Assembly (NCBI GenBank): GCA_016791475.1
Contig: JAEUWI010000017.1
Span: 33,957-97,956, forward strand
Direction of reading: 5' to 3'
Length of the DNA stretch: 64,000 bases
DNA from: Candidatus Hydrogenedentota bacterium
Lineage (GTDB): Bacteria > Hydrogenedentota > Hydrogenedentia > Hydrogenedentales > JAEUWI01
Part shown: piece by piece, positions 6,831 through 56,241 of the stretch
Position numbering within the stretch: the first letter of the stretch is position 1
Layout: each line of letters opens with the position of its first letter
Program-made: the position numbers and the translations under genes
Notes under the pieces: generated by a model
Database searches by the model: none
Told to the model about the DNA's origin: nothing
What the model saw: the letters and a program-made list of their open reading frames with translations, nothing else

Positions 6831-6835
6831 GGCGG

Positions 6836-21491: not shown

Positions 21492-21513
21492 GCTTATGCC
21501 CTCTTAATTCGGG

Positions 21514-24024: not shown

Positions 24025-25380
24025 TCAGCTCACCATGTCCTTGTGTAGATCCCAGGGCGCGCGGACGGGCCGGCTGAGCATGGCGGTGGCTTCGGTATCG
24101 TCGAGGATCTGCTCCTTTTCCGGGTTCCAGCGCAGCGGGCGGTTGAGCCGGATCGCGATGTCGCACAGATGGCTTATCGTGTCGGAGCGAATGGCGGCTT
24201 CGAGGGGGCTCACGGGTGTCTCTCCCGTCTTCGCGCAGTGCAGGAGATCGCCCATGTGGCTCGTGGTCTCTTTCAGGCGTACATCGCTCTCTTTGAATTT
24301 CACCTTCAGGATGTCAGGGTTGCTGGCCAGGATACCGCCGCGATCGACGCTGACCCAGCCCTCGCTTCCGAAGAAGGTCGTGCCGTGGTCCTTCCAGGGG
24401 CGGTAGACCGAAACAATCGGCTCCGCTACGCGGTGTCCCATGAAGCGGAGCTTCACGCCGCTTTCATAGACGCATTCCGTGTCCCAGGACTCGATGGTGT
24501 CGTAGAGTCCCTGTGTAGGGAGGCTTCCCGTGCCGCTGTACTGCACGGGGCTCGTGTGGTCTGTGCCAAGCCCCCATTGGACGATATCGAGGGGGTGGGC
24601 GCCCCACCCCGCGATAAAGCCCAGGGCGTAGTCGTAGAGGTGATAGGTGCCGTAGCAGGTACAGCGATCGACGGTGTAGGTTCGCTCGGGCGACGGGCCG
24701 GTCCAGCGATCAAAATCAAATCCTTCGGGGACCGGCGCAGGCTCCGTACTGCCGTACTGGGGCACACTGAAGGCGGCGTACTGGCTGGAAATATCGGCGC
24801 ACCACGCATCCACGCGGGAAACCTCGCCGATGTAGCCGTTGCGGACGAGTTCGCAGGCCTGGCGGAACTGGGGCGCGGAGCGTTGCTGGGTGCCATACTG
24901 GATGACGGTTCTGTGCTCCGCCGCGACGCGGCGCAATTCCCAGGCCCACTCCATGCTCACGCCCAGGGGCTTCTCCACATAGATCGCCTTGCCCGCGCGC
25001 GCCGCCGCAATCGCGATGGGCACGTGCCAGTGATCGGGCGTGGCGATGATCACGGCGTCGATGTCCTTCCGGGCGAGCACCTCGCGAAAGTCGGCATAGG
25101 CCTGGACCATGTTGCCTTTGTAAAAGGTATTCAGCTTGTCCCGAGTGGATTCCCGCCGATCCGTGTAGCAATCGCTCACGGCGAGAAACTGGGCCTCCGG
25201 TCGGTGCACGGCGTCATTGAGCAGACCGCTTCCGCGCCCGCCCGCGCCGATGAGGGCGATGTTAACGCGATTGCTGGGCGCATCGTTGCCCCAGGCGCGC
25301 GCGGGAAGAATCAGGGGCACCGCGAGCGCGGCCGACGACCATTTCAAGAAATCCCTGCGTGAAGACGGGTGCGTTTTCAT
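24025..25380 (-). CDS. Tat-exported Gfo/Idh/MocA family oxidoreductase
   Basis: RRDFLK Tat motif; NAD-binding IGAGGRGS; EKPL motif; GGGAG RBS. Confidence 0.9.
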   Translation of the reverse strand: MKTHPSSRRDFLKWSSAALAVPLILPARAWGNDAPSNRVNIALIGAGGRGSGLLNDAVHRPEAQFLAVSDCYTDRRESTRDKLNTFYKGNMVQAYADFREVLARKDIDAVIIATPDHWHVPIAIAAARAGKAIYVEKPLGVSMEWAWELRRVAAEHRTVIQYGTQQRSAPQFRQACELVRNGYIGEVSRVDAWCADISSQYAAFSVPQYGSTEPAPVPEGFDFDRWTGPSPERTYTVDRCTCYGTYHLYDYALGFIAGWGAHPLDIVQWGLGTDHTSPVQYSGTGSLPTQGLYDTIESWDTECVYESGVKLRFMGHRVAEPIVSVYRPWKDHGTTFFGSEGWVSVDRGGILASNPDILKVKFKESDVRLKETTSHMGDLLHCAKTGETPVSPLEAAIRSDTISHLCDIAIRLNRPLRWNPEKEQILDDTEATAMLSRPVRAPWDLHKDMVS

Positions 25381-25401
25381 GGTGTAACTCCCGGGGACCT
25401 G

Positions 25402-27048: not shown

Positions 27049-27063
27049 TGTGTATACCCTCGA

Positions 27064-28275
27064 TCAGTACTCCGCTTCGATGGGAATCTTGAGCCTTGAA
27101 AGCTCGCTCTTTTTCCACGCGTAATCTGTGACGCCGTTACCACCCGCCATTCGATTGGGGCGCCGGACCGAAGCCACCTTCACGGCGCGGAGGCTGCGGG
27201 CCCACATCTCTGTCGACGATAAGTTACCGAGCATGGACGCCCGATCGAGGTCCCCCGGGTAGCTCGAAGGTGAGAAGCCGGCGGTAAATGCCGGGGCGTA
27301 GGTCCGCCGAAACTCATCGCACAGCCCCGTCACTTCCGCGCCTATAGCCGCCTTATCCCAGATGTCGACATGGCGACTATCTTTCAGATAAGCGAGGAAA
27401 GTCCGCAGCCCGGCGGTGGGCTGTCCCGCATCGACGGGCAACTCACCCAGGGCCATGGTCAGGGACTTCTCCATCATCCTGATACTTCTGAAAACGTCCG
27501 TGTTCAACTGGCCCGCGTCGCCATAGGAAAGCAACGCTCCGTCCAGGTAGATAAAGGGAATCAGGCCGTTGGAAACCACCACCTCGGAGGTCGCCGAGAA
27601 GCGCCGCGCCAGCCGGTCGCCCCGTGAGGGGCCGCCGCCGAAGGGGTGATAGTGCCCCATCGCCACGATGGCTTCTCCCCGCAGCCACAAGGCCACTTCG
27701 TCGCCCAGATAGGGTATTTCCTTGTAGTCCATATAGGTCCCGAGCGATTGGGCGAGCGCATCGGGCAGCAATGCGTTCCAAGTGCGCAGTGCCACGTGCC
27801 GGTAGCCGCCGTCGGGCGCGCGGACGATGGCGAAAATCATTCCTCCGCTTGAATCGCGCATATCGCCGCAGATCTCCTCTCGATAGCGGGCCACCTGCAC
27901 CTCCGAAGTGAGGAAAGCCGAGAGTTCATTCCCGCCCTCGCCCGGCGCGAAGAAGCACGCCGCATAGCGTTGGGCCAGGAAAGCGTAGACCGAGAGCGGA
28001 TGGCTCGGCGCCAGGGCCATGGGAAGAGACGCAACGACGGCCAGGACCACCGCCACAAAGCGGTGCGCGCGCAGGGTGCGGGAAATGCGCCGGGCGAACA
28101 GGGTTGCGCGAATTCCATTGCGTTCAAATCCTCCGATCCAGCTTCCAACTGTGAAGGGGTGTTTCCACAGGGCGTTCAGGAGACGCTGACGCTCGCTCCA
28201 GCGGCCTTCGGCGGCATGGACCCAACCCTTGGAAATGCCACAGGGCGAGCTTGATATTCCCGTACTGCAAAACAT
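27064..28275 (-). CDS. Hypothetical protein with a JAB/MPN-like HxH...S..D motif (GHYHPFGGGPSRGD)
   Basis: ORF with a plausible GGGGA RBS. The true start may be internal (near 28080), ahead of a hydrophobic segment. The motif resemblance is weak. Confidence 0.5.
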   Translation of the reverse strand: MFCSTGISSSPCGISKGWVHAAEGRWSERQRLLNALWKHPFTVGSWIGGFERNGIRATLFARRISRTLRAHRFVAVVLAVVASLPMALAPSHPLSVYAFLAQRYAACFFAPGEGGNELSAFLTSEVQVARYREEICGDMRDSSGGMIFAIVRAPDGGYRHVALRTWNALLPDALAQSLGTYMDYKEIPYLGDEVALWLRGEAIVAMGHYHPFGGGPSRGDRLARRFSATSEVVVSNGLIPFIYLDGALLSYGDAGQLNTDVFRSIRMMEKSLTMALGELPVDAGQPTAGLRTFLAYLKDSRHVDIWDKAAIGAEVTGLCDEFRRTYAPAFTAGFSPSSYPGDLDRASMLGNLSSTEMWARSLRAVKVASVRRPNRMAGGNGVTDYAWKKSELSRLKIPIEAEY

Positions 28276-28388
28276 GTTGGAATCCCCAAAACTACCAGGT
28301 TTCCAGATACTTCAACGACACTTACAATTCGCGCTCCCCTTCGGGGGCGGATGGCCGTCCTCGCCCCGGCGGAAGACGCCGGGCCGCT

Positions 28389-29213
28389 TCAGCCCTTCAC
28401 CAGATTCCGCAAGTGAGCGATGCTCCGCGCGGCCTGCTCCACCGTCCCGCACTCGACGGAGAGCACGATGTCGCGGGGGGCCTTCCGACACGAGTCGATG
28501 ACCTCGGCCCAGTCGATTACGCCATCGCCGCAGGCACAGCCCACCGGCGTACCGGTAACGCGCCCGCGCTCGGTGTGGGACTGCTCCATGGAGATGTCCT
28601 TCGCATGGAGATGGACCAGGCGGTCCAGGACGCGGTTCAGCCAGTCTATGGGATCTTCACCCGACAGGTAGCTGTTGCCCGTGTCGAAGTTGATCCCGAT
28701 GGATGGCGATTCGACGAGCCCCCAGATCCGGTCCAGCCCTTCGGGGGTCTTGCTGTATTGCTGGTGGGGTTCAATGCCGATGAGAATTCCACGGGACTCG
28801 GCCAGTGGGGCCGCCTCCCGCAGCACGTAGCGCATGAGGACGTGATCCTCCTCCGCCGTGGTCCAGACAGGTTTCGGTCCTTCGTCGGTGTTGACGACCG
28901 GAGCGCCGCACTCCGCGGCGAAGCGGACTGCCTGCTTGAGATACTCGGTGCTGATTTCCGGTTTACAGAGGGGCGTGTGCGTGGACAGACCGGAGAGGCG
29001 CACCCCCGCGCGCTCGCAGGCGCGCTTGATCCGGTAGGGATCGTCCAGCATCGAGACGCTGTGAAAGTAGCCCGCTTCACTAAGCAACTCTCGCCCCCAG
29101 TGAACCATGGGCTCCACGAACTCATAGCCGAGGCTTGCGGCTTTTTCCACCGCCCACTCGAAGGGCTTGTCCGCGTGGCGGACAAATTCCAGGTTAATTC
29201 CGATTCCGATCAT
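28389..29213 (-). CDS. Sugar phosphate isomerase/epimerase (xylose-isomerase-like TIM barrel)
   Basis: Family-typical motifs: the EP of FVEPMVHWG, HLHAKD and a metal-binding GIEPH. Confidence 0.85.
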   Translation of the reverse strand: MIGIGINLEFVRHADKPFEWAVEKAASLGYEFVEPMVHWGRELLSEAGYFHSVSMLDDPYRIKRACERAGVRLSGLSTHTPLCKPEISTEYLKQAVRFAAECGAPVVNTDEGPKPVWTTAEEDHVLMRYVLREAAPLAESRGILIGIEPHQQYSKTPEGLDRIWGLVESPSIGINFDTGNSYLSGEDPIDWLNRVLDRLVHLHAKDISMEQSHTERGRVTGTPVGCACGDGVIDWAEVIDSCRKAPRDIVLSVECGTVEQAARSIAHLRNLVKG

Positions 29214-29565
29214 GACTGCAAAGCCTCCATAGTCGACAGACCGTCAAGCAGCGGGGTCAGATATGTTCAATACACTTTTGTTCAATTGTTGCCATCAGCC
29301 GGACAGTGACCTGCCTGCCGAACACTGATCGTTGCTTCCTTCCGGGCCATTCCCGCGTCCTGGGGCCTGTATACTTTGGCGGTTGGTGAAAGCGGGAGCG
29401 GCTTTTCTCTGGAATCTGTCTTTATTGATGCATTTACCATGCCAGTACAGGAAGGCCGCGCGGCGCCGAGTTTCCGGGTATCGTTTTTGCTTCTCCATCG
29501 CGTTGAAGGGGTGTATACTCACCCCGTTCACTCAAGCGCATTGGATCAAGTTCGGGGAACCTGCG

Positions 29566-37175: not shown

Positions 37176-38753
37176 CTATTTTTCGCCAAACCACCAAGAA
37201 TAAAAGCTGCCCTTCCTCAGGGTGAATCGCAGGCGCACCTCTTTTCCCCGGATCGTATCCAGCGCCCCACGCTCCCAGACCAGTTCGGCCTGCGGATGAT
37301 CGCCTGAAATCACCGTCGACTCCGCGAGCGCCTCTCCCCCATCCATTAGCACTTCCGCGCGAATTTCGCCGCCGTAGGCATCCACGTTTACCCACAGAGC
37401 GCCCTCCGGCATCGTGAATGGCGGCGTCTTAACGGTCCCGGGGGTTTCGCCCGCGTCGAGCGAGATGAAGCCATCTCGACGGAGCACCGCGAGGCAGACC
37501 GCAAAGGCGTCCGAGGCCACGCCCTTGTTCAAGGCGAGCCCGTAATTCATTCCGCCGGTGTAGTAGAACCAGAGCTCGTCCCCGCGGACTATGGGAAACG
37601 AAGGGGGCAGCACGCAGGCCAGATCATAGGCCCCGCTACCGAGTTTGGAGGAGGCGAGAAAGGGCTGGCGATCGCCGAGACGTTGCCACTCTTTGAGGTC
37701 ACGGCTGGCCATCAGTTGCACTTCGTGGAAGCCGCTCCAGTCTCCACTTTCCTTGTAGCCCTTTACCATGTCCGGTGGGATACGCGGGTCGTCAAAGCCT
37801 GGCCAGTCCTTCGGGACCTTACCGGTCTGATGATAGAAGGACGGCATGGCAATATATAGCCCCTCATATCGAAACACGGAAACGTTGTACACATCCACAT
37901 TGTAGGTTTCCGGGATATTGTGGGAAGGCTGCTGAAGCGCAGGGTCGGCGAAGCGGGCGGCGATGTTCTTTCGGCCGATCTCCTGATCGAGATCGTCCGC
38001 GTGAAAGGTCAATACCGGTTCCGTCCAGTGCTCGAAATCCTGGCTGGTGATAATCACATGGGAACGCCCGTGGGGACCCCACGTTTTCAACGTGGCGATG
38101 AAGGTATGGGTCCGGGTATCGTAGCTCAGATTGGACTCATCGCTCGACTTCAGCTTTGGAACATCGAGCAGGGTCCAGTGAATGCCATCCGGGCTCACCA
38201 TCGGCTCCCGGTCGTAGCAATGGGCGAAGCCCTTGAATCGACGGGCGGGATCGGGGTCGTCCGGATCGTAGACCACATTCTCAATGGCATTTGCCGGCCA
38301 CTCCCGCGCGGGATCGGGCGTCACCAGATTGTTCTCCAGCGAACCCCGCACTTCCTTCTGTCGCAGGGCGGGTTTGGTCCAGTGAAGCCCATCGACGCTC
38401 TCAGCGTAGGCGGTTCCGCTGCTCCCGTCCGTCCGCGAGGCCAACAGCCAGAGTTTGAAGACCTTCGCCTCCGGGTCCCATGCGGGCGCGCTCCGGGTCT
38501 GGAGCGAAGTCTCGTCGGGCGGCGTGGGTCGGAGCACCGCGCCCCGTTTCACGGGCGTGTGCATCGTGCGCGAAAGATTCTCGATGATCGCGATACCTGC
38601 ATCATCGAGAAACAACTGTCGCTCGCCGAGCGCGGGAGAAAAAGCTTTGGGTTCGTTGCCTGCCACCTCCTCCGCGGTTGCGCCTGCCATCAGACAGAGC
38701 GATAGCATCGCGCTCTGCAAGAGCGGACCGAAAAATCTGGGATAGACTTGCAT
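37176..38753 (-). CDS. Secreted glycoside-hydrolase-like protein (beta-propeller type, GH43/GH130-like)
   Basis: Signal peptide MQVYPRFFGPLLQSAMLSLCLMAGATA. Family assignment is uncertain. Confidence 0.65.
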   Translation of the reverse strand: MQVYPRFFGPLLQSAMLSLCLMAGATAEEVAGNEPKAFSPALGERQLFLDDAGIAIIENLSRTMHTPVKRGAVLRPTPPDETSLQTRSAPAWDPEAKVFKLWLLASRTDGSSGTAYAESVDGLHWTKPALRQKEVRGSLENNLVTPDPAREWPANAIENVVYDPDDPDPARRFKGFAHCYDREPMVSPDGIHWTLLDVPKLKSSDESNLSYDTRTHTFIATLKTWGPHGRSHVIITSQDFEHWTEPVLTFHADDLDQEIGRKNIAARFADPALQQPSHNIPETYNVDVYNVSVFRYEGLYIAMPSFYHQTGKVPKDWPGFDDPRIPPDMVKGYKESGDWSGFHEVQLMASRDLKEWQRLGDRQPFLASSKLGSGAYDLACVLPPSFPIVRGDELWFYYTGGMNYGLALNKGVASDAFAVCLAVLRRDGFISLDAGETPGTVKTPPFTMPEGALWVNVDAYGGEIRAEVLMDGGEALAESTVISGDHPQAELVWERGALDTIRGKEVRLRFTLRKGSFYSWWFGEK

Positions 38754-38857: not shown

Positions 38858-39385
38858 CTACAATTTCTTCTTCTCAAACCAGGCGAACATCGCCAGCGTT
38901 CCCGCTACGAAAATGGGAATGACCACCCAGTGTGAAACGCCGAGGGACTCCGAAATACCGACTTTGCCGAAGTCTTTCCAGGCCAATACCGAGGTCAACA
39001 GCACCGGGTAGACTTCGGCGTACACGGCCGCACCGATGAGCATGCCGACTACGGCGAAGATGGCATGCCAGCGTCCTTCGGCCAACGCGCCGACGGAGGT
39101 TCCGGGGCAGTACCCCATGACGGCCCAGCCTGCGCCGAAGAGCAGGCCGCCCAGAACAACACCGCCGACGTTCATGGATTTGTGACTGAGGGTGATGATG
39201 CCCAGATCCGACAAGGCATACAGCCCGACAAGCCCCACCAGAATTGCGGACATCATGAACTTGAGGATGGTCATGTCTTTCAGGAGCATGGCGCCCACCT
39301 GCTTCTCAAATCGAAGCACGCGCCCCTTCTGCAACAGCACGCCAAAGATGACACCGGTGATGAGCCCGAGTAACAGTACGCCCAT
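38858..39385 (-). CDS. YeeE/YedE-family (sulfur-compound transporter, DUF395) membrane protein, half-size
   Basis: Multi-TM protein with an MGYCPGTSVGA motif. Its start lies 1 nt after the stop of the upstream half gene. Confidence 0.8.
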   Translation of the reverse strand: MGVLLLGLITGVIFGVLLQKGRVLRFEKQVGAMLLKDMTILKFMMSAILVGLVGLYALSDLGIITLSHKSMNVGGVVLGGLLFGAGWAVMGYCPGTSVGALAEGRWHAIFAVVGMLIGAAVYAEVYPVLLTSVLAWKDFGKVGISESLGVSHWVVIPIFVAGTLAMFAWFEKKKL

Positions 39386-39386: not shown

Positions 39387-39923
39387 TCAGGATTCCTTGT
39401 AGATGAAATGGGCCACAAGAGCCCCCGCGCCAAAGAACATGGCCATTGCGACCAGGCCGCTGACCGACAATTGCATCAGACCGCTCAACCCATGGCCGCT
39501 GGGGCATCCGTCCGCGAGGCGTGCGCCGAACATGGCGACAGCGCCCCCGCCAAGGGCACCCAGGGCCCGTTTACCAATGGAGTCGCCGAAACGCGCCTTC
39601 CAGGTTGGCGGGACGCTTTCCAATTTGAAGCTGGCGCTGGTGAGCGAGGAAATCAGCGCCCCCAGGAAGATGCCGACAACAAACATGAACTGCCAGTCCA
39701 CTTTCACTTTCTCTTTGGTGAAATAGGCATTGCCCTCGACGTGGTCGGGCACGACGCACATTTCCACCAGACCGGCGGCGCGGACAAAGGTGGTGGATGC
39801 GCCGAGAAACTGGGTTTTCGGAATCACGTAGGTCGTTGCCACGGCCGAGGCTATCGCCAGCAAACCCACCAGCGCCCCCGCGAGGTAGGGATTCCATGCG
39901 CCTTCATCTGTTTTCCATTTCAT
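39387..39923 (-). CDS. YeeE/YedE-family membrane protein, half-size (partner of 38858..39385)
   Basis: LADGCPSGHG motif; AAGGAG RBS 7 nt upstream of the ATG. Confidence 0.8.
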   Translation of the reverse strand: MKWKTDEGAWNPYLAGALVGLLAIASAVATTYVIPKTQFLGASTTFVRAAGLVEMCVVPDHVEGNAYFTKEKVKVDWQFMFVVGIFLGALISSLTSASFKLESVPPTWKARFGDSIGKRALGALGGGAVAMFGARLADGCPSGHGLSGLMQLSVSGLVAMAMFFGAGALVAHFIYKES

Positions 39924-40058: not shown

Positions 40059-40823
40059 TCAGGCAAGCGTTTCCTGCTCGCCTGGTGCGCGGTCGATCAC
40101 GCGCCGGAAGCAGTCCTCCATGGAGCATATCTTGCACCCGTAGGCCTCCTTCCTCACCGCGCCCCCAATTCCAATGACACCGCTCACCGACTTCTCCGGC
40201 TGCATCAATGCCGACTCCGTGAGCGTGATTCCGCAAAAGTCGGGCGGCAGCAGAGAGAACAACTTGTGCTGTTCCGAGACACTCCAGCCGCAGTATCCGG
40301 GACTGTACCGATTCGTCGTGCCCCGACCCCGATTAAGGGCCCACGCGACGATTTGCTCCTCGACCCGGTCGGCGGCCTTCTCCACAAGCTCCGAGCCAAG
40401 GGCGTCCACGAAATATGCCTGCAAGTGATCCCCGCCCCCCATGAGCTCCTGAGACCAATCGGTCATCCCTTTGCCCGCGGTCACTACGAAGAACGCAAGT
40501 GTCGCAGCGCCTTGAAGGGGCCTGGCGATGACACGCCCCGTGTGGAATTCATTTCCGCATGCGCGAAAGCCTTCCGTCTCCAGCAGAATGTCTTCCGGAG
40601 AGAAAACGCGAAAGCCGCCTTCGATCTGCGCGCGGGCCGGCGCCTCAAGCAGGAGCCGGTCGAGGTCCTCGGCGAAATGCGTCGATGCCGCGCCACCGGC
40701 ATAGCCCATCCCCCGGGCGACTTCATCTGCGGTCAGACCGAGGGACGCCGCGTCAAGACGAAAGTGATAGGTTTCCGGGCCGCAGGTTGTCGTCGCTTCG
40801 CACATGGCGGACACGCTTTCCAA
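40059..40823 (-). CDS. Methionine-synthase (MetH) reactivation/AdoMet-binding domain homolog (corrinoid-activation protein)
   Basis: RYSPGYCGW and ITLTESALMQPEKSVSGVIGI parallel E. coli MetH RPAPGYPACP and MKLTESFAMWPGASVSGWYF. Confidence 0.7.
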   Translation of the reverse strand: MESVSAMCEATTTCGPETYHFRLDAASLGLTADEVARGMGYAGGAASTHFAEDLDRLLLEAPARAQIEGGFRVFSPEDILLETEGFRACGNEFHTGRVIARPLQGAATLAFFVVTAGKGMTDWSQELMGGGDHLQAYFVDALGSELVEKAADRVEEQIVAWALNRGRGTTNRYSPGYCGWSVSEQHKLFSLLPPDFCGITLTESALMQPEKSVSGVIGIGGAVRKEAYGCKICSMEDCFRRVIDRAPGEQETLA

Positions 40824-40832
40824 TCCGGTGGC

Positions 40833-41501
40833 TCAGGCGCTCGAAGCCGACAGAAACTGGAGCGCGGATTGCGGATCGCGGGAATAATGGTCCGCGCCAA
40901 TTTTCTCGCTGAATTCCTGGGTCAGGGGTGCGCCGCCCACGATCACTCTGGTGTCGGGCCGCTGCGTCTTGATCGCCTGGACAATCTTTTCCATGTTCAT
41001 CATGGTCGTGGTCAGCAGGGCGCTCAGCCCCACCACACAACCCGGGTGGGCGTCGATCGCGGCGATAAACTTCTCGGCGGATACGTCCACCCCAATATCG
41101 ATGACTTCCCAGCCGCCACCCTCCATGATCATGGCCACGAGGTTTTTTCCGATGTCGTGAAGATCCCCCTGGACCGTGCCGATCACGAGTGTGCCCTTGT
41201 GCTTCGTGACGCCGGAGTCGAAGAAGGGCTTCAGGTGGGCCATGCCGGCGCTCATGGCGCGGGCGGCCATGAGCAGATCGGGAACAAAGGCCTGATGCCG
41301 GCTGAACTTATCGCCGATACGGCTCATGCCGGCCATCAACCCTTCATTGAGGACGCTGTTCGGATCCAGGCCCTCGGCGAGGGCCCTGGCCGTCAATTCG
41401 TCCACCCCCTCCTGACCCTTGAGGTCGGGCGGATAGGGTGCGTCCCGGTTTACTTTTCCCCGTTCGGTGTGGAGTGCAATCAGTTCTAGCAGCGAGTCCA
41501 T
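40833..41501 (-). CDS. Corrinoid (cobalamin)-binding protein (MtaC/MetH Cob-domain-like)
   Basis: Start MDSLLELIALH with GGAGAGAAGGGAA upstream. B12-binding_2 cap followed by a Rossmann domain with the DxHxxG motif (GDLHDIGKN). Confidence 0.85.
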   Translation of the reverse strand: MDSLLELIALHTERGKVNRDAPYPPDLKGQEGVDELTARALAEGLDPNSVLNEGLMAGMSRIGDKFSRHQAFVPDLLMAARAMSAGMAHLKPFFDSGVTKHKGTLVIGTVQGDLHDIGKNLVAMIMEGGGWEVIDIGVDVSAEKFIAAIDAHPGCVVGLSALLTTTMMNMEKIVQAIKTQRPDTRVIVGGAPLTQEFSEKIGADHYSRDPQSALQFLSASSA

Positions 41502-41765
41502 ATTCCCTTCTCTCCGTGGCGGCCCCACCGCGAGGGAGATCGGGGACTCGGCCTCGTTGCCGTGTCGGGTACTCCCGGGCGGAGCGTCTGACCTGATCAT
41601 ACTCCTCGCGGGACCGTCGGGGCCACCCTAAAATCCACCCGGTCGCCACGGAGATAAGTACGGTTGCAGATTATGATTGTAAACGCGTCTCCGCCGATCT
41701 ATGATAGAGGCAATGGCTCCGACTTGGGGAAGTGGGAGCGTCACGAAATACTGGGGAACAGTACG

Positions 41766-43199
41766 ATGGGGAACGATCCCGCCCAACGCTATGCGGAACG
41801 CTTCGACCGCTATGTGACCGCGCTTAGAAACGGCAAGCCGGACCGCATTCCGATTCGCCCGTTTGCCGCCGAGTTCACCGCCAAATACGCGGGCTACACC
41901 TGCCAGCAGGTCACCCACGACTACGATCTGGCCTTTCGCGCCATGCGAAAATGCGCCACCGATTTTGACTGGGACGCAGTCCCCGCCAGCATGGTCTACG
42001 TCTGGACCGGCCTCACGCAGGCGATTGGCCTGAAGTATTACGCCACGCCGGGCGTCGAGATTCCCGCCGATACCGCCTTCCAGTTCCTCGAACCTCCCGA
42101 GGGGCAATCCTTCATGCAGGCCGATGAGTACGAGCAACTCATCGCCGATCCCACGGGATTTCTGATGAATGTCTGGCTCCCCCGCGTTTCGCGGGATGTG
42201 TGTCCCATTGGCGAGCCCGTCACGACACGCAACAACCTGTCGTTCCTCAAGGGCGGAATGGCCATGCTGGCCTACTTCAACGCCTTTCCACCCGCCATCG
42301 AGCAATTGAAGGCGGAATGCGGCACCGTCTCCGCCATCGCGGGCATCTTCAAGTCCCCCCTGGACATTCTTGGCGACAAGCTCCGGGGCTATATGGGCCT
42401 GACGATGGACCTGCTGGAGCGGCCGGAACTGGTGCTGGAAGCCTGCAAGGCCCTCATGCCGCACCTGCTCCACGTGGCGTTGACGACGGCCGACCCGGAC
42501 AAGAATGTTCCCATCGGATTCTGGCTCCATCGCGGCGGCGCGCCTTTCGTGAAACTGGAGCATTTCAACACGATCAACTGGCCGACGCTGAAGCCGATCA
42601 TCGAAGCCCTGTGGGCTCATGGCCACCAGACCCTCTTCTATGCCGAGGGCGACTGGGATGCCCACCTCGAAGCGTTTGCGGAGCTGCCGCCCGGCAGCAT
42701 CCAGTACCATGTGGATCGCGGTGACATTCTCCAAGCCCACCGGGTGCTCGGCAAGAAGTTCTGCATCAGCGGCGGCATTCCCAACGCTCTTCTTTCCTAC
42801 GGCACTCCGGAGCAGGTGACGGCCCGCTGTAAAGATGTCATTGACGCGGTCGCGGGCGACGGCGGCTATATCATGGATGCGAGCGCGATCATCCAGAACG
42901 ACGCCCGCGTTGAAAACGTTCGCGCCATGACCGAATTCACCCGATCTTACGGGGTATACAGCACAACGGGTTCCTCTACAGTCCCCGCCAACCCAGGCCT
43001 GAACCCGCCCATCTCTGTCGCCGAGGCCATGGCCAGGATTCCAGTCCCGAATCTGAAGGCCGGGGCGTGCATGCCCTGGCCCGAAAAGCGCAAAGAACTG
43101 GCGCCAGTCCAGGGCGACGAACGCATACTGGAGCGAATCTGGGACAACGTGGACAGCCTTGCCAACATGTATGTCTGGCAATGCCTGCTGTCCTTCTAG
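41766..43199 (+). CDS. UroD-family (MtaA/CmuA-like) methyltransferase paralog 1, long form
   Basis: N-terminal region AERFDRYVTALRNGKPDRIPIRPF typical of the UroD-like fold. The track ORF starts at 41664. Confidence 0.75.
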   Translation: MGNDPAQRYAERFDRYVTALRNGKPDRIPIRPFAAEFTAKYAGYTCQQVTHDYDLAFRAMRKCATDFDWDAVPASMVYVWTGLTQAIGLKYYATPGVEIPADTAFQFLEPPEGQSFMQADEYEQLIADPTGFLMNVWLPRVSRDVCPIGEPVTTRNNLSFLKGGMAMLAYFNAFPPAIEQLKAECGTVSAIAGIFKSPLDILGDKLRGYMGLTMDLLERPELVLEACKALMPHLLHVALTTADPDKNVPIGFWLHRGGAPFVKLEHFNTINWPTLKPIIEALWAHGHQTLFYAEGDWDAHLEAFAELPPGSIQYHVDRGDILQAHRVLGKKFCISGGIPNALLSYGTPEQVTARCKDVIDAVAGDGGYIMDASAIIQNDARVENVRAMTEFTRSYGVYSTTGSSTVPANPGLNPPISVAEAMARIPVPNLKAGACMPWPEKRKELAPVQGDERILERIWDNVDSLANMYVWQCLLSF

Positions 43200-43223
43200 G
43201 AAAATCGAGGGAGAAAGACAACA

Positions 43224-44231
43224 ATGACAGGTCGCGAACGGGTTCTGGCCATGCTTTCCGGAAAAACCCCGGATTCACTCCCCCTGATGCCTATCACCAT
43301 GATGTTTGCCGCCGACCAGACGGGCGTGCATTACCGCGACTATGCGAATGACCACCGCGTTCTCGTGGAGGCCCAGATTTGCACGGCGGAGCGCTTCGAC
43401 TTCGATCACGTGTCGTGCATCTCCGATCCCGGCCGGGAGGCCGCGGATTGTGGCGCGACGGTGGTCTATTTTGACGACCAGCCCCCCGCGATTGACGAGA
43501 TCAATGCGCGGCTCGCCAACAAGGCCGACCTGCTCACGCTGAAATTGCCCGATCCGCTTGGTGGCGGCCGAATGCACGATCGGGTGCTCGCCGCGGCTTT
43601 GTTCAAGGAGCGCGTGGGTGGGGAGAAACTCATTGAGGGCTGGGTGGAGGGCCCCTGCGCCGAGGGTGCCGACCTGCGGGGTATCAATACCCTCATGATG
43701 GACTTCTACGACGACCCCGCCTTCATCCACGATCTCTTCGCCTTCAATGTCGAAATGGCCCTCGCCTTCGCGAAGGCGCAGGTGGATGCCGGAGCCGGTA
43801 TTATTGGCGTGGGTGATGCCGCGGCGTCCCTCATCGGCCCGCACCTCTATGAAGAGTTTGTCTTTCCGTATGAAAAGCAACTGGTGGACGGCCTGCATGC
43901 CATGGGCACCCTGGTCCGCCTGCATATCTGCGGCAATACTTCCGCCATCCTCGCGGGGATGGGCCGTCTGGGCTGCGACATCGTGGATCTGGACTACATG
44001 GCTTCCCTTGCGGACGCTCGTCACGCCATGCCGGCCCGGCAGGTGCTTCTCGGGAATATGGATCCGGTTTCGGTGCTGCGCAACAGTTCCGTGGGCACGG
44101 TTACGGACACGCTTGATAACTGCTACCGAGATGCCGGCCCCCTTTACATCGTAGGGGCCGGTTGCGAGGTGCCTCGCGGGACACCGCTGGCCAACGTGGA
44201 GTGCCTTCGGGACTACGCCCGCTCACACTGA
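43224..44231 (+). CDS. UroD-family methylcobamide:thiol methyltransferase (MtaA-like) paralog 2
   Basis: Zinc-ligand motif LHICGN (HxCG) and a downstream GAGCEVP cysteine; MtaA-like length (335 aa). Confidence 0.85.
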   Translation: MTGRERVLAMLSGKTPDSLPLMPITMMFAADQTGVHYRDYANDHRVLVEAQICTAERFDFDHVSCISDPGREAADCGATVVYFDDQPPAIDEINARLANKADLLTLKLPDPLGGGRMHDRVLAAALFKERVGGEKLIEGWVEGPCAEGADLRGINTLMMDFYDDPAFIHDLFAFNVEMALAFAKAQVDAGAGIIGVGDAAASLIGPHLYEEFVFPYEKQLVDGLHAMGTLVRLHICGNTSAILAGMGRLGCDIVDLDYMASLADARHAMPARQVLLGNMDPVSVLRNSSVGTVTDTLDNCYRDAGPLYIVGAGCEVPRGTPLANVECLRDYARSH

Positions 44232-44246
44232 GGCCCGACCTGTCAC

Positions 44247-45368
44247 TCACGCGTCGGGCGGGATATCCAGCGTTGCTTCCACGAGGCGGGCGAGGTCCAG
44301 CACCCGTTCATCGGGCGTGTCCGCTTCGATATCCGCCATAACAATGTCGCAGGGACTCAGTTCTCGGCGTATGCGGGCCAGATCCGCAGCCAATTCGTCC
44401 AGGGACTTGCCCGTAAGGTCGGTCGGGCGATACATCACCGCCCGCCGTGCCCGAGGGCACAGATCCCGCGCGCGCCGGAGGTCGGAATCCATTCCCATAT
44501 CAACGTAGCCGAGCTTATCTATACTCGCGTAGTCCTCGATATAGGGGTCGACATTCCATGCGCAATTGTGGATTCCAAAATGCTCGAAGGCCTCGGAGAG
44601 CATCCGGTCGTATGGAAGAATGAACTCGCGATACTGATCCGGCGAAACCATGTTCACCACGCAATTGCTCACGGTGGCATGGCGTACGATGACGCCCGAT
44701 TCACGTTGCCGGGCATAGAGCAACTTCATGCCGCTGATCATGGTCCGGGTTACCACCTCAAACAGGTGGCACGCCAGTGCGGGATCCATCATCAGGTCGA
44801 TAAAGATCTGGTCGCCCCGAATCCGAAAGGCGTTGTTCAGCACGCCCTGCCAGTTGATGTAGCCCTCGATGCGTCCGAAGTGGCGCTCGATAAGATCCGC
44901 CTGCTCCATAATCTGCACAAAGACCGGATTCGCGGAAAGATCCGGCACTTCCAGCGACTTGATCCGGGCTTCGCTCAGGTACTCGTGTCGGGCAGCGGGC
45001 CAGTTGTCGGGGTAGTACTCCGCGCCTACACCGAAGATACGCGACATGGTCACTGCCCCGTGCACACCATCCAGCGTGGACGGCGCCGCGTCGGGGTTGG
45101 CGCCGCCGAGTTGCAGGCTGGGAAAACGGCGATTCAGTTCCCGGCGCATGCGCACGAGCGTTTCGCCGCGATAGAGGGGATCGAGGTGCCAGCGCTCCGA
45201 AAAATCCACGTCGCAGTTCGCCCTGTACCAGAGCGGAGTGAAACCATACTCGACGCGCAAGTCGGACTCCGAGCCATCACAGGGGGTGCGCGTGGCCGGG
45301 GCGGCGGGCGCAATAAAGCTGCGCAACTGGCCGACGGTGGACAGGGTGGCTTCCGTGGTTGTGCTCAT
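44247..45368 (-). CDS. UroD-family methyltransferase paralog 3
   Basis: IHNCAWNVDPY (HxC motif) and a UroD-like C-terminal region. Confidence 0.7.
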   Translation of the reverse strand: MSTTTEATLSTVGQLRSFIAPAAPATRTPCDGSESDLRVEYGFTPLWYRANCDVDFSERWHLDPLYRGETLVRMRRELNRRFPSLQLGGANPDAAPSTLDGVHGAVTMSRIFGVGAEYYPDNWPAARHEYLSEARIKSLEVPDLSANPVFVQIMEQADLIERHFGRIEGYINWQGVLNNAFRIRGDQIFIDLMMDPALACHLFEVVTRTMISGMKLLYARQRESGVIVRHATVSNCVVNMVSPDQYREFILPYDRMLSEAFEHFGIHNCAWNVDPYIEDYASIDKLGYVDMGMDSDLRRARDLCPRARRAVMYRPTDLTGKSLDELAADLARIRRELSPCDIVMADIEADTPDERVLDLARLVEATLDIPPDA

Positions 45369-45389
45369 GGCGGCTCCTTTACCGGGTCA

Positions 45390-46274
45390 TCATGCCCGGG
45401 CGATGGCCTCGCGGATGGCGCGAATGTGGTCCGGTGACGTGCCGCAGCAGCCGCCTATGATATTTGCTCCAGCGGCGATCATGGCGGGCACGCAACCCGA
45501 CATGAAATCGGGGGTCTCCGGATAAGACTCGCCTTCGGCGGTCAGCACGGGCAGCCCGGCATTGGGATGTACGAGAATGGGGGTGTCGGGCGCGGCCGCG
45601 CGCAGGGCCTGGACCACACCGATCATGGGCTCGGAACCCTGGCTGCAATTGGTGCCCAGAATATCGGCGCCGGCCGCCACCAGGGCCGCCGCCATGTCGG
45701 CGGGCGATGCGCCCATCATCGTGTAGTAGGTTTCACCCGCACAACTGTCGTAGGTAAAGGAGCAGATGATTTCGAGGGCGGTGCAGGCCTTCACCGCCTT
45801 CACCGCCACCACGGCCTCGTCGATGGCCGAAAAGGTCTCGATAATGCAGGCATCCGCGCCGCCCTCTTCCAGTGCGCGGGCCTGGGCGCCGAATACCTCC
45901 GCCAGCTCCTCTTCGCTGGTGTCACCCATCATCAAAATCTTACCGGTTGGCCCGATGGAGGCCGCCACGTTCACCTCGTCGCCCGCGGCCTCACGGGAGA
46001 GTCGTGCGGCCGCGCGATTGAGTTCGGCCATTCTTCCGTCGAGGCCATAGGCGGCCAGCTTGATGCGCGAGCCGCCAAAGCTGTTCGTGGTCACGATATC
46101 GGAGCCGGCATCCACATAGCGCCGGGCAATGCTGCGCACCGCATCGGGATGCTCCACATTCCAGAGCTCCGGGCACTCCCCCGCTTTCAGGCCCTGGGCC
46201 ATCAGCAGGGTTCCCCAGGCGCCGTCGGACACGAGGACGCCTTTTTCTTTGATTTTTTCACGAATGGACTTCAT
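45390..46274 (-). CDS. Homocysteine S-methyltransferase domain protein (MetH Hcy-binding-domain / MmuM-like)
   Basis: Start MKSIREKIKEKGVLVSDGAWGTLL with GGGGAGA RBS. Zinc/Hcy motif GGCCGTSPDHIRAI. The upstream 400 codons of the track ORF (to 47459) are rejected as non-coding. Confidence 0.85.
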   Translation of the reverse strand: MKSIREKIKEKGVLVSDGAWGTLLMAQGLKAGECPELWNVEHPDAVRSIARRYVDAGSDIVTTNSFGGSRIKLAAYGLDGRMAELNRAAARLSREAAGDEVNVAASIGPTGKILMMGDTSEEELAEVFGAQARALEEGGADACIIETFSAIDEAVVAVKAVKACTALEIICSFTYDSCAGETYYTMMGASPADMAAALVAAGADILGTNCSQGSEPMIGVVQALRAAAPDTPILVHPNAGLPVLTAEGESYPETPDFMSGCVPAMIAAGANIIGGCCGTSPDHIRAIREAIARA

Positions 46275-46568
46275 AGGGGTCTCCCCGGTTCGACGGCGGT
46301 CCATCGACATCGACTCCCCCGTCGATGCGCGCCCGTCGGGCCTTGTGATCGTTGCGATTACACAGCGCGCCCTTAGTCTACGGCACGCCTCCCCCGGCGA
46401 GCAAGCGGGAAATCTTTTTCCTGCGCGAGGCAAGGTGGCGACAGCGTCGTGATCGCGTATCCGAGTTCCATGGGTTACAATAGGCCGACGCGTCTCGGGC
46501 GCAGGCCCAGCGATACACGGGGGATACTGGAGCGAATCGGGGCTCCAAGAAAAAGGAGAGAGCAATCC

Positions 46569-48311
46569 ATGAATGCACACAACCGCAGAACGTTCCTGAA
46601 GGGCGCCACCGCGCTGGGCCTGGCCGGCTTTGCCGACGTGACCCGCGCCGCCTACGGGGCTGAGAAGATCTCCACCGAATCGACCCTGAAGGTTCGAATC
46701 AAGGCGGACGGGGAGCCCCTCGTCGCCCGAGGCTTTGCAATCTTGAAGGATCGAATCGAGCAGCGATGCGCGGTTCGCGTTGTCGAAGGTCGAAGCGGTG
46801 CAACGGTTATCCTGACGGTGGACGAGAAGCTTCCCCCGGAGGCTTTCCGTATTGATGAGAAGCGTGGCGCGGTTCGTGTCGCGGGGGGCTCGCCGAGCGG
46901 CCTGCTCTATGGCATTGGGAAGTTCCTTCGCACCAGCGGCTACGATGGCGGCTTTCAGCCCTCGAGCTGGCGCGGCACTTCGGCGCCGCAGGGCTCCCTG
47001 CGGGGCATGTACTTTGCCTCTCACTTCCACAACTGGTATCACGAGGCGCCGGAGGCGGAAGTGATTCGTTACATGGAAGACCTCTCGCTCTGGGGCGTGA
47101 ACGCCATCATGGTCATCTTCCCCATGATCAATCTTCAGGGCTGGGATGACCCCGAAGCGGAACCCGCGATGGCGAAGCTGCGCCAGTATGTGGTCTCCGC
47201 ACGAGAACTGGGGCTGCAATTTGTCACCGGATTGAACAACTGCATGTTCATCGGCGCACCCCAGGACATCCGCGCCGGTCGCCTGCCCGACCCGACAAAG
47301 CGGCGGGGCAACAGCGGCCATCCCATCTGCCCCAGCAATCCCAAAGGGCACGCCTACCTCATGGAGAACACGGAGAAGCTTTATCAAAGACTGGCGGATG
47401 TGGGTCTGGATCTGGTCTGCATGTGGCCCTACGACGAAGGGGGCTGCTCCTGCGATCAATGCGCGCCCTGGGGCAGCAATGGCTACGTGAAGATCTCACG
47501 AGACCTTACGTTGCTTGGCCGGAAGTACTTTCCGAATCTCAAAACCATCGTGAGCACCTGGATGTTTGACACGCCACCCGAAGGCGAGTGGCAGGGCCTG
47601 ACGGACGTGCTGGCCAGGCAGAATGACTGGGCAAGTTACATACTGGCCGATTCCCACGAGGACTTCCCCCGCTATCCGCTGGACGTTACCGTGCCGGGCA
47701 ACCTGCCCCTCATCAATTTTCCCGAAATCAGCATGTGGGGCAACTCCCCCTGGGGCGGTGTCGGCGCCCATCCCCTGCCCGCCCGCTTCCAGCGCCTGTG
47801 GGACCAGGTGAAGCACAAGGTCGAGGGCGGCTTTCCCTACAGCGAAGGCATCTATGAAGACATGAGCAAGGCCATCGTTCTCCAGTTCTACTGGAATCGC
47901 GACCAATCCGCACGGGCCACGCTGGAGGAATACATCGCCTATGAATTTGGGTCCGGCGTGACCGAAGACGTGCTGGCGTTGGTGGAGCTCTTGGAGAGCG
48001 CCGTCGGCCGCGCTTTCCGAAAGGAACCTGCCGACAAAGAGGCCGTCGAACGCGCCTTCGCGCTGGCGGAGGGTGTTCACGCCCGGCTGCCGGAGTGGGC
48101 GCGCACGAGCTGGCGCTGGGAGATTCTCCATTTGCGCGCCCTGCTCGACCGCGAGCGCTTTGCCGGCGCGGGGCTGGAGAGTCCCACCGCTGAAGCCGCG
48201 CTCTTGCGCCTGGTGGAGATTTACCACTGCCAGTTGGAAACGGACGACCCCTACCACCACCGTGTCCGGCCTCGACTTCGCCAGGCGGTGGACCGTGCGG
48301 GGAGAAAATAA
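46569..48311 (+). CDS. Tat-exported glycoside-hydrolase-like protein (paralog of the gene at 1..963)
   Basis: Start MNAHNRRTFLKGATALGLAGFA with AAGGAGAG RBS. Shares W-GVNA and CxCxxC motifs with the first gene. Confidence 0.75.
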   Translation: MNAHNRRTFLKGATALGLAGFADVTRAAYGAEKISTESTLKVRIKADGEPLVARGFAILKDRIEQRCAVRVVEGRSGATVILTVDEKLPPEAFRIDEKRGAVRVAGGSPSGLLYGIGKFLRTSGYDGGFQPSSWRGTSAPQGSLRGMYFASHFHNWYHEAPEAEVIRYMEDLSLWGVNAIMVIFPMINLQGWDDPEAEPAMAKLRQYVVSARELGLQFVTGLNNCMFIGAPQDIRAGRLPDPTKRRGNSGHPICPSNPKGHAYLMENTEKLYQRLADVGLDLVCMWPYDEGGCSCDQCAPWGSNGYVKISRDLTLLGRKYFPNLKTIVSTWMFDTPPEGEWQGLTDVLARQNDWASYILADSHEDFPRYPLDVTVPGNLPLINFPEISMWGNSPWGGVGAHPLPARFQRLWDQVKHKVEGGFPYSEGIYEDMSKAIVLQFYWNRDQSARATLEEYIAYEFGSGVTEDVLALVELLESAVGRAFRKEPADKEAVERAFALAEGVHARLPEWARTSWRWEILHLRALLDRERFAGAGLESPTAEAALLRLVEIYHCQLETDDPYHHRVRPRLRQAVDRAGRK

Positions 48312-48327: not shown

Positions 48328-48357
48328 CCGGGGCGCGTTGGCGTCAGCGCGCCCCGG
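48328..48357. terminator. GC-rich hairpin (CCGGGGCGCG-N9-GCGCGCCCCGG) between convergent genes, overlapping the stop of 48344..49606
   Basis: Seen in sequence. 10-11 bp perfect stem. Confidence 0.45.
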
Positions 48358-49606
48358 GCGGTTCCTTCCATTCCCCCACCACCTGCTGGATGGCCTCCAG
48401 CGCGCCAAGGTCGCTTTCGATGCCTTCCCAGTTGTAGACGGTAATATGGCGGCAATCGCGAAACTGAAAGGTCTTCACAAAGTGCTCCGCCCAGGCCGCG
48501 CGGTCCTGTCCGGGCCACAGCCATTCCACAGCGGCCCAGCGGGTCCGACCCGCGTGCGCCATCGCCTCTTCTATCGGGGCCATATCCGCCGGGCCCTTCC
48601 AGTAAATGCTCCAGCCCGGCGTGGACCATTCGTTGAACGCGGCGGAAAAGGGAATATGACGTTCGAAGGGTTCCAAGGTTCCGCCCTCGTGGACGTAGAC
48701 CTTCTCGGGCGGCAACCCGGCATCCGCGGCGGTCTTTGCGAGCAACCCGAGATAGCGCCGGACCACTTCGCCGAGGTCGTCGCGAGTCAACACGCCCTCG
48801 GACTTGATGCCGGCGCTTTTCACCGCCGCGTAGCCAAGCTGGGCCAGACCGCCACTCAGCCCTTTGGTCGCGTCCAGGCCATAGACAGGATCGTGCGTTT
48901 CTTCGGCGGGCCACTTCTCCGCGAACTGATTCCCATCGGGATAGTAGAAAGCGTTGTAGCCGATGCTGGCCTCCCAACCCAGCTTCACGCCGCCAAAGAG
49001 GTGGGCGCGCGCAGGCGGGAGAGCCCGGCGCCATTCTTCCACGATTCCGAGTAGTGTCTTCATCGGCTCAAGCGTCGCGTTGAGCACTTTGGGACTCATG
49101 ATGTTCTGCGCTGGGGCCACGCGCAATTGACGTCCCCAGTTGCGCCATCCGATCTTCACCGCACCGCTGGGATCCCAGGTGCACCACTCCACGTTCTGCA
49201 CGTTCGCCGGGTCATAGCCTGGTCGCGCGGGATCCCACCAGTTCCACAGCTCGGGGCGGTTCTCCCACCAGTTCTGCCCGTCGAGCACAATCAGCACGGG
49301 CACTCCCGTGGCCTCGCTGGCGCGCAACAAATCGTGCAAGGCGCGCGTTTGCTGTTCCATGGGCGAATTGAGCACGGAGAAGATCCAGCTCACGCCCACG
49401 CGCATGTCCTCCCGCTCCGATGCGCCGATGGTTCTCGAAATTTCTGTCAGTGTTGCTCGAAAATCCGCCTCGCTCTCGCCCCGCTGCTCGCCAGAACCAT
49501 AGGCCACGTTGAGAAAGATATAGCGGGGATCCCCCGACGCGGCAAGGGCGACCAGGGAATAGGAAAGACAGGCAATCACGGTCACGACCCTGGGGAACAG
49601 GCTCAT
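48344..49606 (-). CDS. Secreted hypothetical protein
   Basis: Signal peptide MSLFPRVVTVIACLSYSLVALAASG. No family assigned. Confidence 0.7.
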   Translation of the reverse strand: MSLFPRVVTVIACLSYSLVALAASGDPRYIFLNVAYGSGEQRGESEADFRATLTEISRTIGASEREDMRVGVSWIFSVLNSPMEQQTRALHDLLRASEATGVPVLIVLDGQNWWENRPELWNWWDPARPGYDPANVQNVEWCTWDPSGAVKIGWRNWGRQLRVAPAQNIMSPKVLNATLEPMKTLLGIVEEWRRALPPARAHLFGGVKLGWEASIGYNAFYYPDGNQFAEKWPAEETHDPVYGLDATKGLSGGLAQLGYAAVKSAGIKSEGVLTRDDLGEVVRRYLGLLAKTAADAGLPPEKVYVHEGGTLEPFERHIPFSAAFNEWSTPGWSIYWKGPADMAPIEEAMAHAGRTRWAAVEWLWPGQDRAAWAEHFVKTFQFRDCRHITVYNWEGIESDLGALEAIQQVVGEWKEPPGAR

Positions 49607-55883: not shown

Positions 55884-56241
55884 TGGTGGAGGCGGCGGGA
55901 ATCGAACCCGCGTCCGAAAGTGTGTCCACGAAGGCGTCTACGTGCATAGCCCGTCTTTTAAGATTCGCCACCCGGGATCGCGTGAGGCTCGCTATCCAGG
56001 GCCGCTAGGGGGAAACCTACTCTATCGGACGTTCCACCGACGTTCCGACGCGAGACCCGCTGTCGTGCGTCTTAGCCCCTTAGCAGGTGGTCAAGGGTAA
56101 GACGAGGCGGCAATTAAGCAGCCATTGCGAAATCGTGTTGATCGTTCGCAGTTAATTGGGTTCCGGTTTTTTACGAGGCCACCGGAGTCCTCGGCACGCA
56201 ACCAACGTTTCATCCACCCCCGTCGAGACCATGTCGCCCCC
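55884..56241 (-). ncRNA. ssrA: tmRNA (ssrA), ~358 nt
   Basis: Minus-strand RNA. The 5' end GGGGGCGACAUGGUCUCGACGGGGG and the 3' end GGACGCGGGUUCGAUUCCCGCCGCCUCCACCA form a tRNA-like acceptor stem, T-arm and CCA. Tag reading frame GCG AAC GAT CAA CAC GAT TTC GCA ATG GCT GCT TAA gives ANDQHDFAMAA. Confidence 0.85.

Follow-up and report, generated by a model that had tools for sequence, protein, structure and literature searches.

Organization of the gene cluster

A stretch of 64,000 nucleotides from the genome of a Candidatus Hydrogenedentota bacterium (assembly GCA_016791475.1, contig JAEUWI010000017.1, positions 33,957 to 97,956) was analysed in its entirety and is referred to here as the window, with positions counted from its first nucleotide. 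The subject of this report is a cluster of six adjacent genes at 40059-46274, designated A to F, which encode a methionine synthase (MetH)-type activation protein (A), a corrinoid protein (B), three proteins of the UroD superfamily (C, D and E) and a stand-alone homocysteine S-methyltransferase domain (F), and which are candidates for a corrinoid-dependent methyl-transfer system. Clusters that join an F-type protein to a corrinoid protein and such methyltransferases are termed hubs below, and individual loci are denoted by numbers prefixed with L.

The limits of the cluster correspond to the stop codon of A (40059) and the start codon of F (46274). The window has a G+C content of approximately 61%; its gene map was obtained by codon-position GC analysis, and domains were called by Pfam and NCBIfam profile searches of its open reading frames (ORFs; 38 ORFs in the case of PF00809). 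The gene map and profile searches confirmed the six genes where an initial annotation, made from the sequence alone, had placed them, and all of its domain calls were found to be correct, with the proviso that E scored below the Pfam threshold and its fold was recovered from an AlphaFold2 model. The motifs were likewise verified directly: B carries DLHDIG, D carries HIC...GAGC, E carries HNC, F carries GGCCG together with Cys210, and A carries RYSPGY.

The cluster consists of three two-gene units, B-A, C-D and F-E, with gaps of 21-27 nt within units, F and E being separated by 21 nt on the same strand. B and C are divergently oriented and D and E are convergent. The features are listed in Table 1.

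Table 1. Features of the cluster and of its immediate surroundings, in window coordinates (MT1, substrate:corrinoid methyltransferase)
Feature	Position	Strand	Description	Profile match
Split YeeE/YedE pair	38858-39385 and 39387-39923	-	Sulf_transp/DUF6691 membrane proteins, directly downstream of A	Pfam/NCBIfam
A	40059..40805	-	Stand-alone MetH activation (reactivation) protein, TM0269 type, 248 aa	Met_synt_B12 51.9 bits
B	40833..41501	-	Corrinoid (B12-binding) carrier, 222 aa, cap and Rossmann domain	B12-binding_2 67 bits; B12-binding 97 bits
B/C intergenic	41502..41765	.	Intergenic region separating the divergent B-A(-YeeE) and C-D operons	
C	41766..43199	+	UroD-superfamily protein, 477 aa, predicted CdmB/MtoB/O-demethylase (MT1) clade	URO-D 71.9 bits
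D	43224..44231	+	MtaA-like methyltransferase, 335 aa	URO-D 191.7 bits; MtaA/CmuA 133 bits
E	44247..45368	-	Divergent protein of predicted UroD fold, 373 aa	URO-D 20.7 bits, under the 23.9 cut-off
F	45390..46274	-	Stand-alone MetH-type homocysteine-binding S-methyltransferase domain, 294 aa	S-methyl_trans 241 bits

Methionine synthase modules encoded in the window

The solved structure nearest to F is the homocysteine/folate fragment of Thermotoga maritima MetH (1Q7M), with which it scored 168 bits, as against 86 bits for betaine-homocysteine methyltransferase (BHMT) and 60 bits for MmuM; on these scores the reading of F as a BHMT- or MmuM-type enzyme was rejected. The three zinc ligands of F are Cys210, Cys276 and Cys277, which correspond in the alignment to the T. 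maritima motifs GxNC and GGCCGT. The best NCBIfam models for F include a YitJ-type bifunctional enzyme and BHMT, both under cut-off.

The match of A to Met_synt_B12 is confined to the model's C-terminal half, and its nearest solved structure is 1J6R (E=2.8e-9), that of TM0269, which acts as a separate reactivation protein for the split MetH of T. maritima. A carries the sequence RYSPGY, which represents the S-adenosylmethionine (SAM)-site motif RxxxGY of the activation domain; its start codon was set from the 248-aa ortholog in the near-identical genome L001. Beyond the part that aligns to the 214-residue TM0269, the C-terminus of A extends into an additional C-x2-C-x4-C-x2-R tail (CKICSMEDCFRR; window 40059-40170), which was invariant in four homologs with identities down to 25% and which may bind a metal or an Fe-S cluster to take up electrons during reactivation. 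A-like proteins with this Cys tail are encoded at L164:15525-16250, L170:7290-7982 and L129:3879-5123.

The DLHDIG sequence of B, an instance of the DxHxxG motif, is located in the Rossmann domain at approximately residue 113. The top NCBIfam models for this protein were those of methylotrophic corrinoid proteins, namely MtgC_2 (195 bits), pyl_corrinoid (168 bits) and MtbC (158 bits), with metH scoring 135 bits.

The window was also searched by tblastn with full-length MetH, a stand-alone pterin-binding protein, MTHFR, RACo, MtaB and DUF1638 as queries. Over the 64 kb, MetH found matches only for its homocysteine, B12 and activation modules, these being F, B and A, respectively. No pterin-binding (PF00809) module was identified either among the 38 window ORFs or by tblastn of the 64 kb, so that the initial proposal of three of the four MetH modules occurring as separate proteins, with the pterin module absent, was borne out across the whole window. 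Neither MTHFR, RACo, MtaB nor DUF1638 was found in the 64-kb window by tblastn, the missing RACo homolog leaving it without a candidate Ram/RACE activase by this search, and no window ORF matched the MttB superfamily (PF06253).

No cobalamin, SAM or other riboswitch was detected near the cluster by Rfam searches at gathering and permissive thresholds, the sole Rfam match in the window being a tmRNA gene. Counts of promoter and terminator patterns equalled the shuffled expectation; these matches, not above expectation, included one sigma-70-like match in the B/C intergenic region (41677-41705, plus strand).

The UroD-superfamily proteins

D possesses an intact zinc-thiol site (His234-x-Cys236 ... 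Cys314), and its nearest structure is MtaA (4ay7), with the LHICGN and GC segments aligned. The initial annotation had treated the three UroD-type proteins as methyltransferases and not as true hemE orthologs, and the profile search agreed: against the hemE model TIGR01464, D scored 68.5 bits relative to a cut-off of 303, and the NCBIfam search returned no match to this model for C or E. An identity as HemE was hence rejected for all three.

The profile of the C family matched CdmB (9rui) with E=1e-46, the alignment spanning positions 2-398 of the 477 in the profile. CdmB is a recently solved chloromethane:corrinoid methyltransferase I that has been characterised both structurally and biochemically; it is metal-free and belongs with the MtoB/OdmB/VdmB/MtvB O-demethylase clade (PMC13222342). 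When C was placed in register with D by hhalign, Tyr-Ala-Glu was found at the position of the MtaA His-x-Cys motif and Ala at that of the third zinc ligand, and this lack of zinc ligands fits the metal-free nature of CdmB. C is accordingly best described as a predicted CdmB/MtoB-clade substrate:corrinoid methyltransferase without a thiol-zinc site. Members of the C family, of approximately 475 aa, share 60-68% identity across phyla, and past the end of CdmB they carry a family-specific C-terminal extension of approximately 80 aa (window 42960-43199), with an invariant Gly433-x-Cys435-x2-Trp438 and the terminal sequence ...W-Q-C-L-L-S-F.

Sequence comparison failed to assign E to any solved structure (E=0.54), and its structure was therefore predicted. 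The AlphaFold2 model, derived from 110 homologs, had a pLDDT of 95.7, and Foldseek matched it with a probability of 1.0 to MtaA and UroD structures; the best TM-score was obtained with MtaA 4ay7 (0.64/0.69), and the top E-values (~1e-11) with UroD 6w2o and MtaA. The model thus assigns E a UroD/MtaA fold despite its sub-threshold Pfam score. His267-x-Cys269 (HNC) was invariant in alignments of the family, and the position of the third Cys is occupied by Ile347, beside an invariant Asp346 (hhalign against D). E belongs to a divergent orphan family of approximately 365 aa that keeps the HxC motif.

From these comparisons, C, D and E represent three distinct lineages of the UroD superfamily and not recent paralogs. 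The initial annotation had described three UroD paralogs, two with the HxC motif; three UroD-superfamily proteins are indeed encoded, with HxC in D and E only, and what did not stand was a close paralogous relationship, the lineages being very different.

Conservation of the cluster in related genomes

The C and E families had been expected to be anchored in corrinoid clusters; this expectation failed, and the analysis was therefore re-anchored on F. The closest 120 relatives of F were all stand-alone proteins of approximately 295 aa, mostly from Hydrogenedentes. Five distinct F contexts were sampled, and another two (L057 and L129) came from the C- and E-anchored scans, giving a total of seven independent contexts. 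In all five of the sampled contexts, F was accompanied by a corrinoid protein and by one to four UroD genes (once also by MtaB), and an activator, either A-like or RACo, was present nearby in four.

All six genes, with identities of 71-87%, were found in L164/L165, a relative of approximately 80-87% identity, and the cluster recurred with an altered gene order and approximately 62% identity in L166 and L169. The order in L166/L167 was PocR-AraC, F, RACo, UroD, corrinoid protein, C and D. In L169, genes encoding a GH78 glycoside hydrolase and RhaT were followed by UroD-F-RACo, UroD, corrinoid protein, C, D and E, whilst L168 comprised a minimal triplet of UroD, corrinoid protein and F. The hub in L170 contained three UroD genes, the corrinoid protein, an A-like protein, F and MtaB, and adjoined genes for Rnf and pyruvate:ferredoxin oxidoreductase. 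This MtaB (L170:8911-10278), a methanol:corrinoid methyltransferase (MT1), is encoded directly after F, a placement that implies a predicted transfer of methyl groups from methanol to methionine in that organism. Of the remaining two contexts, L057, from a member of the Verrucomicrobiota, encoded RACo, the corrinoid protein, F, DUF1638, D, MTHFR, a pterin-binding protein, an amidohydrolase and C, and L129 encoded the corrinoid protein, RACo, an A-like protein, F and E. RACo was found in L057, L129, L166 and L169, and D orthologs with 66-82% identity were present in five other hubs. The five sampled hubs of the Hydrogenedentota type showed no pterin module over the surrounding 8-10 kb.

B and F therefore constitute the constant core, with C, D and often E recurring in the Hydrogenedentota; the activator is either of the MetH type (A) or RACo, and the donor-side genes vary. 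Because it recurs in relatives, intact in L164/L165 and rearranged in L166 and L169, the cluster is more than a chance arrangement, and because all five F contexts and the two further ones share this co-location, the functional link between F, the corrinoid protein and the UroD proteins is well supported. The association of a stand-alone homocysteine domain with a corrinoid protein and UroD-type (once MtaB) methyltransferases, as originally suggested, thus extends to seven independent contexts. For C, D, E and F, the nearest relatives were encoded in metagenome-assembled genomes (MAGs) of the Hydrogenedentota, with 74-82% identity, and the earlier attribution of the DNA to the Planctomycetes-Verrucomicrobia-Chlamydiae (PVC) group is probably wrong, though one Verrucomicrobiota MAG has a related cluster.

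Genomic context of the C and E families outside hubs

The C family was surveyed using one genome per species in at least 553 species genomes, neighbourhoods being taken from the best 80 loci, and the E family in 80 metagenomic loci. Hosts of the C family include Hydrogenedentota, Planctomycetota, Armatimonadota, Verrucomicrobiota, Lentisphaerota, Kiritimatiellota and Prolixibacteraceae. C was located beside a corrinoid protein in six of its 80 genome loci (L057, L067, L070, L078, L083 and L001, the last being the near-identical genome). The more frequent neighbours of C were GFO/IDH/MocA oxidoreductases (23 loci, in ten of which they lay directly downstream of C on the same strand), proteins with 3-keto-disaccharide-hydrolase/AP_endonuc_2 domains (17 loci) and heparinase-like genes (six loci, always directly upstream of C), with ThuA, DUF6807 and sulfatases as further recurrent neighbours. 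Those of E were sulfatases, fusions of FGE-sulfatase and BNR domains, NanA-like DHDPS proteins and SSF transporters. A gene of the FGE-sulfatase and BNR_2 fusion family is also present in the window (21695-23641, minus strand), the same family recurring beside E-family genes in 8 of 49 metagenomic loci. In L122, an E-family gene (5715-6839) is located approximately 2.5 kb from a canonical full-length metH (22-3171), with a GH97 gene between them.

O-methylated sugars are put forward as a lead for the methyl donor because both families occur in glycan loci. Under the most specific form of this idea, the C and E families would be oxygen-independent, corrinoid-dependent demethylases that act on methyl-ether sugars from algal or plant glycans, and the hub would channel the methyl groups to methionine; we consider this rather unlikely as it stands. 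No account of corrinoid-dependent demethylation of sugars was found in literature searches.

Neighbouring genes

The split YeeE/YedE pair adjoining A was retained in L001 and in L164 (L164:16313-17378) and was missing from L165. L164 and L165 are otherwise syntenic and encode identical F proteins. The difference is thus an indel that separates close relatives, and the pair counts as accessory, outside the core of the hub. Its adjacency to the cluster, pointed out in the initial annotation, stands; a role as a fixed component was rejected, given its absence from L165.

Also in the window, a block at 24025-29243 (minus strand) encodes a GFO_IDH_MocA protein, a ThuA-DUF6807 fusion, a 415-aa protein of no assigned function and an AP_endonuc_2 protein. 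It resembles the usual neighbours of C elsewhere, and the same block adjoins the F-RACo-UroD-corrinoid protein hub in L166; its composition suggests a pathway of the 3-keto-glycoside type. Three conserved flanking proteins (37176-38753, minus; 46449-48311, plus; 48344-49606, minus) have signal- or twin-arginine translocation (TAT)-like N-termini and no Pfam family, and are probably uncharacterised glycan-active proteins. The protein designated U2 had only a marginal match, to the N-domain of beta-N-acetylhexosaminidase (E=0.011), and searches with U1 and U2 gave no useful match in the PDB. An ORF for an IS200-like Y1 transposase (20796-21503, minus) lies in a dip in G+C content (~57%), and the tmRNA gene mentioned above is full-length (55884-56241, minus; RF00023, 185 bits).

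Proposed function and alternative explanations

We propose, with a probability of about 0.6, that the locus is a corrinoid-dependent methyl-transfer hub built like a disassembled methionine synthase. In such a hub, B would cycle between Co(I) and methyl-Co(III) and would be methylated by one or more substrate-specific methyltransferases of the UroD superfamily. The most likely loader of B would be C, as an MT1 of the CdmB/MtoB clade, a role that MtaB would assume in L170. D and E, with their zinc-thiol and zinc-thiol-like sites, might act as further loaders of the methylthiol type, like MtsA/MtpA, or as alternative unloaders. F would then move the methyl group from methyl-B to homocysteine, forming methionine in a zinc-dependent reaction of the MetH type, and A would repair oxidised Co(II)-B through SAM-dependent reductive methylation. 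We infer the direction of methyl flow, the identity of the UroD protein that loads B, the identity of the donor and the independence from methyl-folate from sequence comparisons. The hub would probably allow this glycan-degrading bacterium to obtain methionine from methyl donors other than methyl-folate. Independence from folate is plausible because no pterin module is encoded in the window or near the five related hubs.

Several observations weigh against this proposal. L057 encodes a pterin-binding methyltransferase together with MTHFR, and folate independence is for this reason not proven; a folate module elsewhere in the present genome could be the main source of methyl groups. The roles of D and E are ambiguous because thiol-type sites such as theirs are typical of methyl acceptors (the second methyltransferases, MT2). 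Approximately 70 of the 80 C loci and 76 of the 80 E loci are without B, A, D or F within 10 kb, and since both families are mostly unlinked to corrinoid genes, their dependence on corrinoids is inferred from their homology together with the minority of loci that do show such linkage. Lastly, the Rfam and promoter searches revealed no riboswitch or clear promoter that points to co-regulation with methionine supply.

Amongst the alternatives, it is possible, if less probable, that F, B and A are an ordinary folate-dependent split MetH, the pterin module of which is encoded elsewhere, and that the UroD proteins are catabolic MT1 enzymes which share B and pass their methyl groups mainly to tetrahydrofolate, to be oxidised or assimilated as in MtgBCDE. 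The presence of Pterin_bind and MTHFR genes in one cluster with B, F, D and C in L057 favours this arrangement, as does the precedent of MtgBCDE, in which a corrinoid protein is shared and the pterin module is bidirectional (PMC12478193), and a split MetH with dispersed genes is already known (PMC5764234). Against it, the five sampled Hydrogenedentota-type hubs and the 64-kb window lack a pterin module over the ranges searched, and it is F, not a pterin protein, that consistently accompanies the corrinoid protein and UroD genes.

It is quite unlikely that the cluster serves salvage of methylated sulfur or selenium compounds of the mlp type, in which D and E would demethylate methanethiol, dimethyl sulfide, methylmercaptopropionate (MMPA) or methylselenides onto B, F would dispose of the methyl group on homocysteine and YeeE/YedE would move the sulfur or selenium species. 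The His-Cys-Cys site of the MtaA-like D, the HxC of E and the adjacent YeeE/YedE-type transporters are in keeping with such a role, and type 1 mlp clusters likewise encode a corrinoid protein together with three MtaA-like proteins, no acceptor being known for them (PMC10418091). However, the YeeE pair occurs neither in L165, which is otherwise identical, nor in the remaining hubs, C is without a thiol site and of the O-demethylase/haloalkane MT1 clade, the third Cys of E is not conserved in register, the window encodes no Ram/RACE gene, and at other loci it is glycan genes, and not sulfur or selenium genes, that adjoin C and E.

That the genes are adjacent by coincidence, F methylating homocysteine from S-methylmethionine, SAM or betaine and the UroD-like proteins being decarboxylases or unrelated enzymes, would accommodate the sub-threshold YitJ-type and BHMT models of F, the low URO-D score of E and the solitary position of most C and E homologs, but is highly improbable in view of the seven independent contexts that join F to a corrinoid protein, the greater similarity of F to MetH than to BHMT or MmuM, the full-length homology of C to a proven corrinoid MT1 and the MtaA-like character of D, which is far from hemE.

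Relation to known systems

The concept of a modular methionine synthase is not new, and it is the UroD-type variant that differs. Clusters of an MttB homologue, a homocysteine methyltransferase, a corrinoid protein and an activation protein, found in Electryoneota and others, led to a methionine-synthesis hypothesis published in 2022 (PMC9324843); they hold the same three stand-alone MetH-derived modules (homocysteine, B12 and SAM activation) beside a non-folate methyltransferase as does the hub, and synthesis of methionine from an unknown donor is a hypothesis only in both cases. Their donor-side enzyme is of the MttB type, whereas those of the hub are of the UroD type. The MtgBCDE system, with MttB-type modules, was demonstrated genetically in 2025 in the marine Alphaproteobacteria Ruegeria pomeroyi and Phaeobacter inhibens (PMC12478193; split MetH in PMC5764234). 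As in the hub, a separate corrinoid protein serves both a substrate-specific MT1 and a stand-alone homocysteine S-methyl_trans protein (MtgE), and reactivation is a separate function; in contrast, MtgBCDE employs an MT1 of the MttB superfamily and the pterin-binding MtgD, whereas the methyltransferase modules of the hub are three members of the UroD superfamily, its activator is, unlike that of MtgBCDE, a MetH activation-domain protein, and the window is without a pterin module. No paper describing a UroD-type variant was found in literature searches.

With the split MetH of T. maritima (TM0268 and TM0269), the hub shares an F that is most like the homocysteine domain of TM0268 (1Q7M) and an A that is most like TM0269 (1J6R). 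TM0268 joins homocysteine, pterin and B12 modules in one chain, whereas the modules of the hub are separate and do not include a pterin module, and A has its Cys-rich tail in addition to the part shared with TM0269.

The CdmBCA, MtoABCD, OdmABCD and MtvABC systems resemble the hub in that C shows full-length homology to the MT1 CdmB and is encoded next to a small corrinoid protein. In those systems the methyl group passes to tetrahydrofolate or tetrahydromethanopterin (H4MPT) via a pterin-binding MT2, and the activator is an ATP-dependent RACo/AE protein, whereas the sole recognisable acceptor in the hub is the homocysteine domain and the activator is of the MetH type, with RACo in its place in related loci. 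The type 1 mlp clusters described by Kountz and Balskus (PMC10418091) resemble the hub in placing several MtaA-like UroD proteins beside a corrinoid protein, in lacking a folate methyltransferase and in their association with sulfur or selenium genes; they require Mlp2 and Mlp3 with His-Cys-Cys sites as well as Ram/RACE, and occur mostly in Firmicutes. In the hub, by contrast, the His-Cys-Cys site is confined to D, C is of an MT1 clade, Ram/RACE is missing and there is an explicit acceptor, F. Judged by its gene content, the hub appears to stand apart from the known systems in its UroD modules, its homocysteine acceptor, its Cys-tailed MetH-type activator and its setting of glycan utilisation in the Hydrogenedentota.

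The C-type and E-type UroD families, being large, conserved and uncharacterised, are candidates for a step in anaerobic glycan catabolism. Were the sugar methyl-ether reading true, an anaerobic equivalent of the P450 sugar demethylases would be described for the first time, along with a folate-independent methionine synthase. If the scheme proposed for the hub holds, methionine synthase would be one configuration of an exchangeable toolkit comprising a corrinoid carrier, a homocysteine acceptor, an activator and several donor modules, in which UroD-type donors would join the MttB-type donors already shown. Uncultured glycan degraders, including Hydrogenedentota, some Verrucomicrobiota and others, would then be able to capture methyl groups without folate, and MAG-based predictions of methionine and B12 auxotrophy would change.

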